The notes beneath the pieces are model-generated. The model ran no database searches, was not told the origin of the DNA, and saw only the letters and a list, made by a program, of their open reading frames with translations. The translations under genes were made by a program, and so were the position numbers. A stretch of DNA of 1,217 nt from Naegleria gruberi (lineage: Eukaryota), in NCBI GenBank assembly GCA_000004985.1, contig GG739279.1; one strand, given 5' to 3'. This document shows, piece by piece, positions 609-739 of the stretch. How positions within the stretch are numbered: the stretch's first letter is position 1; each line of letters opens with the position of its first letter.

Positions 609-739
609 GGGGTGTTTCGGGAAATTTTGTAAAATAAAATTTAAATGTTTATTACAACCGCTACATTATTAAGGCTAGTTATTATCCACCATACTTTGAA
701 AAAGTTGGAAAATTTTTTTCCAAAATTTCCCGAACACCC
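609..739. repeat. Foldback / MITE-like inverted repeat: ~20-bp arms (609-629 and 721-739) around a 91-bp AT-rich loop
   Basis: The left arm 'ggggtgtttcgggaaattttg' (609-629) has reverse complement 'caaaatttcccgaaacacccc'. The right arm 'caaaatttcccgaacaccc' (721-739) matches it with 14 perfect bases, a 1-nt indel, then 5 more matches. The loop 630-720 is very AT-rich. The arms are seen directly. Interpretation as a mobile-element remnant is inference. Confidence 0.75.

Follow-up and report, generated by a model that had tools for sequence, protein, structure and literature searches.

The stretch of DNA analysed here, 1,217 nt long and referred to throughout as the window, looks from its composition and reading frames like eukaryotic non-coding DNA. 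Its longest ORF is of 68 aa and its longest stop-free run of 75 codons, against a shuffled mean of 74.5. None of the 10 longest stop-free segments scored above the cut-off against Pfam, ARAGORN found no tRNA or tmRNA in the window, two ORFs of the window, looked up by exact match in the assembly gene index, had no record there, and none of the 3131 candidates retrieved when the six-frame stop-free segments (at least 20 aa, concatenated) were searched against 5.8 billion proteins reached E <=0.01, so that no called ORF with a resemblance to the region was found. The window is 34.1% GC, with observed/expected ratios of 1.42 for CpG, 0.79 for GpC and 0.78 for TpA, and AA/TT and CC/GG are in excess. 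Around its middle lies a short inverted repeat with an AT-rich interior, flanked by two copies of the same 5-mer, to which nothing in tandem-repeat, promoter and terminator scans was relevant. The features, none of which is assigned to a strand, are as follows.

602-606: left flanking TTTCG, a candidate 5-bp target-site duplication (exact 5-mer, adjoining 607)
607-609: TAG, the imperfect outermost left terminus in the 607-741 model (direct reading)
610-629: left arm, GGGTGTTTCGGGAAATTTTG (19 pairs and one unpaired T with 721-739)
630-720: AT-rich non-coding interior (loop) of 91 nt, 23% GC, with weak inner pairing
721-739: right arm, CAAAATTTCCCGAACACCC (the reverse complement of 610-629 less one T)
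740-741: AA, the imperfect outermost right terminus in the 607-741 model (direct reading; A741 is complementary to T607)
742-746: right flanking TTTCG, a candidate 5-bp target-site duplication (exact copy of 602-606, adjoining 741)

An earlier note on this DNA had described arms of ~20 bp around a 91-bp AT-rich loop, and this description holds. Direct reading and local alignment give 19 Watson-Crick pairs between 610-629 and 721-739 and a single unpaired T (in a TTT/TT run), with no G-U pair among them; the reverse complement of the right arm reads GGGTGTT-CGGGAAATTTTG, also written GGGTGTTCGGGAAATTTTG. The extent of the arms, previously placed at 609-629 and 721-739, has to be shortened by one base on the left, where G609 is without a pairing partner. 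The arms are 45-47% GC and their boundaries are sharp, neither the interior nor the flanks having complementarity above null. An apparent inward continuation of the arms (630-650 with 700-720) adds only 3 score units and amounts to AT-rich, low-complexity matching of A/T runs, the interior is no more similar to the rest of the window than in the shuffled null, and the 40-nt flanks show further direct or inverted similarity at null level only. Because of these sharp edges, with interior and flanks at null, the structure has the appearance of terminal repeats around unrelated filler.

The claim that an inverted repeat of this size is unlikely to arise by chance in 1.2 kb was well founded. When scored by local alignment (+1/-2/-3, arms at most 260 nt apart), the repeat reaches 19, against 10.3 on average (sd 1.05) and at most 14 in 400 dinucleotide shuffles of the window, and a score of at least 19 was seen in one of 10,000 first-order Markov windows generated with the window's own transition frequencies (p ~1e-4 per 1.2-kb window). 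Within one window, the inverted repeat is thus clearly non-random.

Several lesser repeats share the window. A second inverted repeat, 443-458 / 583-598 (GTCGGACAAAATAATC / GATTATTTCGTCCGAC), is complementary at 15 of 16 positions, has a 124-nt spacer, stops 11 nt short of the main repeat and is without a flanking direct repeat; its score of 13 corresponds to p ~0.05 per window. Segments 387-420 and 1134-1167 form a 34-nt inverted match that is 74% complementary and brackets ~780 bp including the foldback, with a chance-level score, as is also the score of the direct repeat TTGTGTCAT(A/T)TAAA at 389-402 and 1174-1187 (13/14 identical). The 11-mer AATTCGCAAGT occurs exactly at 814-824 and 1001-1011, which is only mildly unusual in 1.2 kb, with a near-copy, GAATCGCAAGT, at about 1091-1101; these copies sit in similar 17-nt blocks (808-824, 995-1011 and 1085-1101), each with a T-run within ~10 nt downstream (T14, T5 and T6, respectively). 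Perfect short palindromes are found at 322-333 (AAAAAATTTTTT), 410-421 (TTATTTAAATAA) and 1028-1037 (TTCGATCGAA), and homopolymer runs at 103-113 (T11), 307-316 (A10), 320-327 (A8), 380-386 (G7) and 832-845 (T14).

The flanking 5-mers are where they had been reported, 3 nt outside the left arm and 2 nt outside the right one, a spacing that had led the earlier note to consider them a degraded target-site duplication that does not cleanly abut. The gap is real with respect to the arms as drawn at 610 and 739, but when the ends are set at 607 and 741 TTTCG adjoins both termini exactly, in the layout TTTCG|TAGGGGTGTTTCGGGAAATTTTG ... CAAAATTTCCCGAACACCCAA|TTTCG. The unit so defined is 135 bp long and 30% GC, and its termini read TAGGGGTGTTTCGGG... 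on the left and, with the right end reverse-complemented, TTGGGTGTTCGGG.... They differ by a mismatch, A608/A740, and by two indels of a single base in homopolymer runs (GGGG/CCC, the run 609-612 lying opposite 737-739, and TTT/AA), while T607 can pair with A741. Exact abutment thus comes at the price of 2-3 imperfect terminal bases, the last 3 containing a mismatch and an indel. A 5-mer common to both arm ends within 3 nt is found at 2.2% of window positions and at 2.0% in shuffles, although the true chance level is possibly above 2% since TTTCG is locally enriched and forms part of an arm: four of its seven + strand copies in the window lie within 588-746 (588, 602, 615 and 742), one of them inside the arm. 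This arrangement is compatible with a MITE-like element of 135 bp that duplicated 5 bp of its target on insertion.

The reading that we tentatively favour, with confidence that stops short of even, is that 607-741 is a decayed single copy of a MITE, i.e. a non-autonomous cut-and-paste DNA transposon, of 135 bp in AT-rich non-coding, probably eukaryotic, DNA. A transposase encoded elsewhere would have bound terminal inverted repeats of roughly 21-23 bp, the element would have integrated where a TTTCG target was cut with a stagger of 5 bp, and gap repair would have duplicated TTTCG on both sides. After insertion, the termini would have changed by a substitution at A608/A740 and by slippage of one base in each of two runs (GGGG/CCC and TTT/AA); both arm indels are in homopolymer runs, where slippage would be expected to place them. 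For this element we infer past mobility, although today the copy is probably immobile and neutral. Were the region transcribed, a hairpin whose stem has 19 perfect bp would be predicted for either strand.

MITEs are described by terminal inverted repeats, target-site duplications, a length below 800 bp and a high AT content (PMC5199201). The terminal repeats of the 607-741 unit, at 19 pairs and a bulge, exceed the generic minimum of ~10 bp, and the unit is short, non-coding and AT-rich both overall and inside. The case for a MITE, which starts from an inverted repeat far beyond chance in one window, is plausible and appears slightly strengthened by the abutting TTTCG (~2% by chance). The earlier suggestion of a MITE remnant is compatible with the structure, somewhat more so than had been thought once the ends are set at 607/741, but no superfamily signature fits. 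A weak argument against a MITE is that no second copy was found in the collections searched, a MITE family in iMITEdb being defined by at least three copies (PMC5199201). If the composition does point to a honeybee-like genome, the scarcity of MITEs in such genomes, just one family having been found in Apis florea (PMC5199201), also speaks against a MITE.

The searches for relatives were as follows. Exact matches to either arm (GGGTGTT[N]CGGGAAATTTTG) were found at 35 loci, 18 in JGI metagenome contigs, 2 in IMG/VR and 15 in GTDB genome contigs, a count that by estimate is roughly what a 19-20-mer should give in some 1e12 bases. Each of these loci has one arm, with nothing beyond 20-25 nt in BLAST comparison with the window and no homologous partner arm. 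The only locus with a partner-like match, metagenome contig Ga0136596_1030008, is unrelated (54% GC) and carries a chance 20-nt arm match; it has an inverted repeat of its own, 288-484 / 565-761, with 197-nt arms that are 85% complementary around an 80-nt spacer, and further related short inverted repeats. The whole window had no match in phage and plasmid collections (blastn, word size 11), and a full-text literature search did not find the arm sequence. These are weak negatives for relatives because the collections are mostly prokaryotic and viral, with little eukaryotic DNA. Inside the window, the arm with at most 3 mismatches matches only itself, its 13-mer core with at most 3 mismatches has 4 matches against 2.3 expected, and alignment of the element with the rest of the window scores within the shuffled null, giving no second copy.

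An origin by replication template switch, in which the polymerase would in one event have copied ~20 nt from the complementary strand ~100 nt away, with the TTTCG pair being coincidental, is unlikely on balance but deserves serious consideration. It would account well for 19 perfect pairs with abrupt edges and for an interior and flanks that are unrelated, and both the solitary state of the repeat in the collections searched and the misfit with every transposon superfamily signature are in line with it. On the other hand, flanking direct repeats are not predicted by a template switch, and yet TTTCG adjoins both 607-741 ends (~2% by chance). Published inverted repeats of this origin moreover mostly have short spacers, whereas the spacer here is of 91 nt. 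The process itself has been documented to generate inverted repeats and hairpins de novo in eukaryotes (PMC5453318, PMC10710096). Under this reading, the repeat would add to the examples of a mutational process already known.

That the inverted repeat is due to chance, is of no particular origin and was singled out since many windows were scanned is improbable, even though scanning may have introduced a selection effect. Extrapolation from ~1e-4 per window puts the number of comparable chance repeats in a genome of a few hundred Mb in the tens, TTTCG, with its seven copies, is frequent in the window, and the neighbouring repeat at 443-458 / 583-598 does not rise beyond p ~0.05. Against this, the repeat (1e-4) and the placed flanking 5-mers (0.02) would, if independent, coincide in ~2e-6 of windows, and mutation and mobile elements are expected to give rise to more such repeats in real genomes than chance does.

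Folding of the 600-750 region, which had been put forward as a check, gave a stable hairpin with z of about -3 to -4 on both strands. The energies are -36.7 kcal/mol (z -2.95) for the + strand as RNA, -37.1 kcal/mol (z -3.81) for the - strand as RNA and -26.1 kcal/mol (z -4.25) for single-stranded DNA, while the 607-741 unit gives -34.8 and -37.1 kcal/mol on its two strands and the RNA duplex of the two arms -27.6 kcal/mol. When a 150-nt frame is slid along the window from end to end, z falls below -3 on both strands only at 601-750. The predicted fold has ~19-20 solid pairs, with probabilities of 0.92-1.0 save for the ambiguous bulged-T position, followed by weak AU pairing (0.3-0.7 further inward) and a branched interior of ~50-90 nt. 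Since both strands fold about equally and there is no G-U pair, no transcribed strand is favoured, and that both strands fold alike through Watson-Crick pairs only argues for an origin at the DNA level rather than for a hairpin selected as RNA.

A transcribed hairpin RNA, i.e. a young miRNA-like or siRNA precursor whose 19-bp stem would be an RNase III substrate, is accordingly hard to credit, although it could be compatible with either a MITE or a template-switch origin. The long hairpin RNA that had been suggested is thermodynamically possible on either strand, but it has no Rfam family and shows no strand asymmetry. In Rfam 15 (E up to 10), no family reaches its gathering score, the best obtaining 23.8 bits against 139.7 and all having E >=0.68. 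The sub-threshold resemblances (16-24 bits against gathering scores of 94-195, E about 0.7-8) are all to long plant MIR hairpins, namely MIR2606 (RF04205), MIR4208 (RF04174), MIR1435 (RF03926), MIR2670 and MIR8007. This has some appeal for a miRNA-like reading, as does the finding that template switching yields hairpins that became miRNA genes (PMC10710096), but scores this low reflect only a generic hairpin shape, and a known miRNA finds no support, all of them being below the gathering thresholds. The architecture of animal pri-miRNAs, which prefer a ~35-bp stem and a small unstructured apical loop (PMC10710096), is far from that seen here, where only 19-20 solid bp are followed by a ~90-nt interior with pair probabilities of 0.3-0.7.

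In an RNAfold model of 430-770, two long hairpins are directly adjacent (434-609 and 610-739), and the repeat might conceivably be half of a young lineage-specific structured ncRNA locus comprising both, which we consider very improbable. Were it so, small RNAs would be processed from the hairpins and the locus would be a de novo hairpin gene derived from a MITE or a template switch. Finally, a functional palindrome at the DNA level (a cruciform-forming site, as had also been suggested, an origin or a paired protein-binding site) is the least credible reading, since in spite of the favourable folding of single-stranded DNA noted above a spacer as long as 91 nt makes extrusion from duplex DNA very unfavourable, and neither conserved relatives nor a recognisable binding-site array was found.

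The 610-739 repeat is real and has solid statistics behind it, yet it is of an ordinary kind and matters little alone, neither a MITE nor a template-switch origin opening a new question. Should it be a MITE copy, it would show what the termini (TAGGGGTGTTTCGGGAAATTTTG) and the 5-bp target duplication are in a family that cannot be assigned to any of the common superfamilies, which could aid repeat annotation of the source genome. This would weigh more if, as the composition hints, the source is poor in transposons, like a honeybee-like insect. If the insertion took place, an empty site would be expected to read ...CGACGGGTTTCGGACTTTC... (likewise ...CCGACGGGTTTCGGACTTTCTCC...), with a single TTTCG.

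How does the locus compare with known systems? Transib is a eukaryotic cut-and-paste superfamily with 5-bp target-site duplications and termini that begin with 5'-CAC. The 607-741 unit resembles MITEs derived from it in having a candidate duplication of that length, but its termini, 5'-TAGGGGTG (TAGGGG) and 5'-TTGGGTG, are without CAC, and a Transib MITE was rejected. Elements of the hAT superfamily have a 5'-YARNG terminus consensus and 8-bp duplications; here, the left terminus TAGGG fits this consensus and the right, TTGGG, fits it at 4/5 positions, but the 8-mers GGGTTTCG (599-606) and TTTCGGAC (742-749) have 0/8 in-register matches, and a hAT MITE was rejected as well. A Tc1/mariner (Stowaway-like) MITE was rejected since the TA at 607-608, separated from the left arm by a single base, has no counterpart after the right arm (739|AATT), and PIF/Harbinger (Tourist-like) and piggyBac MITEs since neither TWA nor TTAA is found on both sides (flanks ...TTTCGTAG|GGGTG and CACCC|AATTTCGG). 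Foldback elements of the FB type consist for the most part of long arms, which are built from tandem subrepeats. FB-type transposons (Drosophila) and Tm1 (root-knot nematodes) are alike in that the whole element can fold back, but the arms here, 20 bp of a 130-bp unit, are without tandem subrepeats (Tandem Repeats Finder detected no array in 600-750) and the candidate duplication is of 5 bp, so that the foldback transposon proposed as an alternative to a MITE has to be given up.

Further afield, long plant MIR hairpins (MIR2606, MIR4208 and MIR1435) are of similar make-up (130-190 nt, a terminal stem, a loose interior), but at 19-24 bits against thresholds of 94-140 the repeat is not a member, and the CpG excess of the window speaks against a plant nuclear origin. 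Template-switch inverted repeats (PMC5453318, PMC8794818, PMC10710096) share the perfect arm pair, the abrupt edges and the solitary copy, but those events leave no flanking direct repeats, and their diagnosis needs ancestral or outgroup sequence. As a compositional hint only, the window is like honeybee non-coding DNA in its low GC and CpG excess, a combination that is striking in the honeybee genome (GC 34%, CpG observed/expected about 1.64-1.7; PMC4406589). A close comparison is with insect or other eukaryotic MITEs that have been assigned to no superfamily, such as the 481 'unknown' families in iMITEdb (PMC5199201). Although the repeat differs from these in being a single copy rather than at least three, in a target-site duplication at the ~2% level and in its imperfect last 2-3 bases, like them it has terminal inverted repeats of ~20 bp, is short (135 bp), is AT-rich and non-coding inside, and has a candidate short target-site duplication adjoining its ends.
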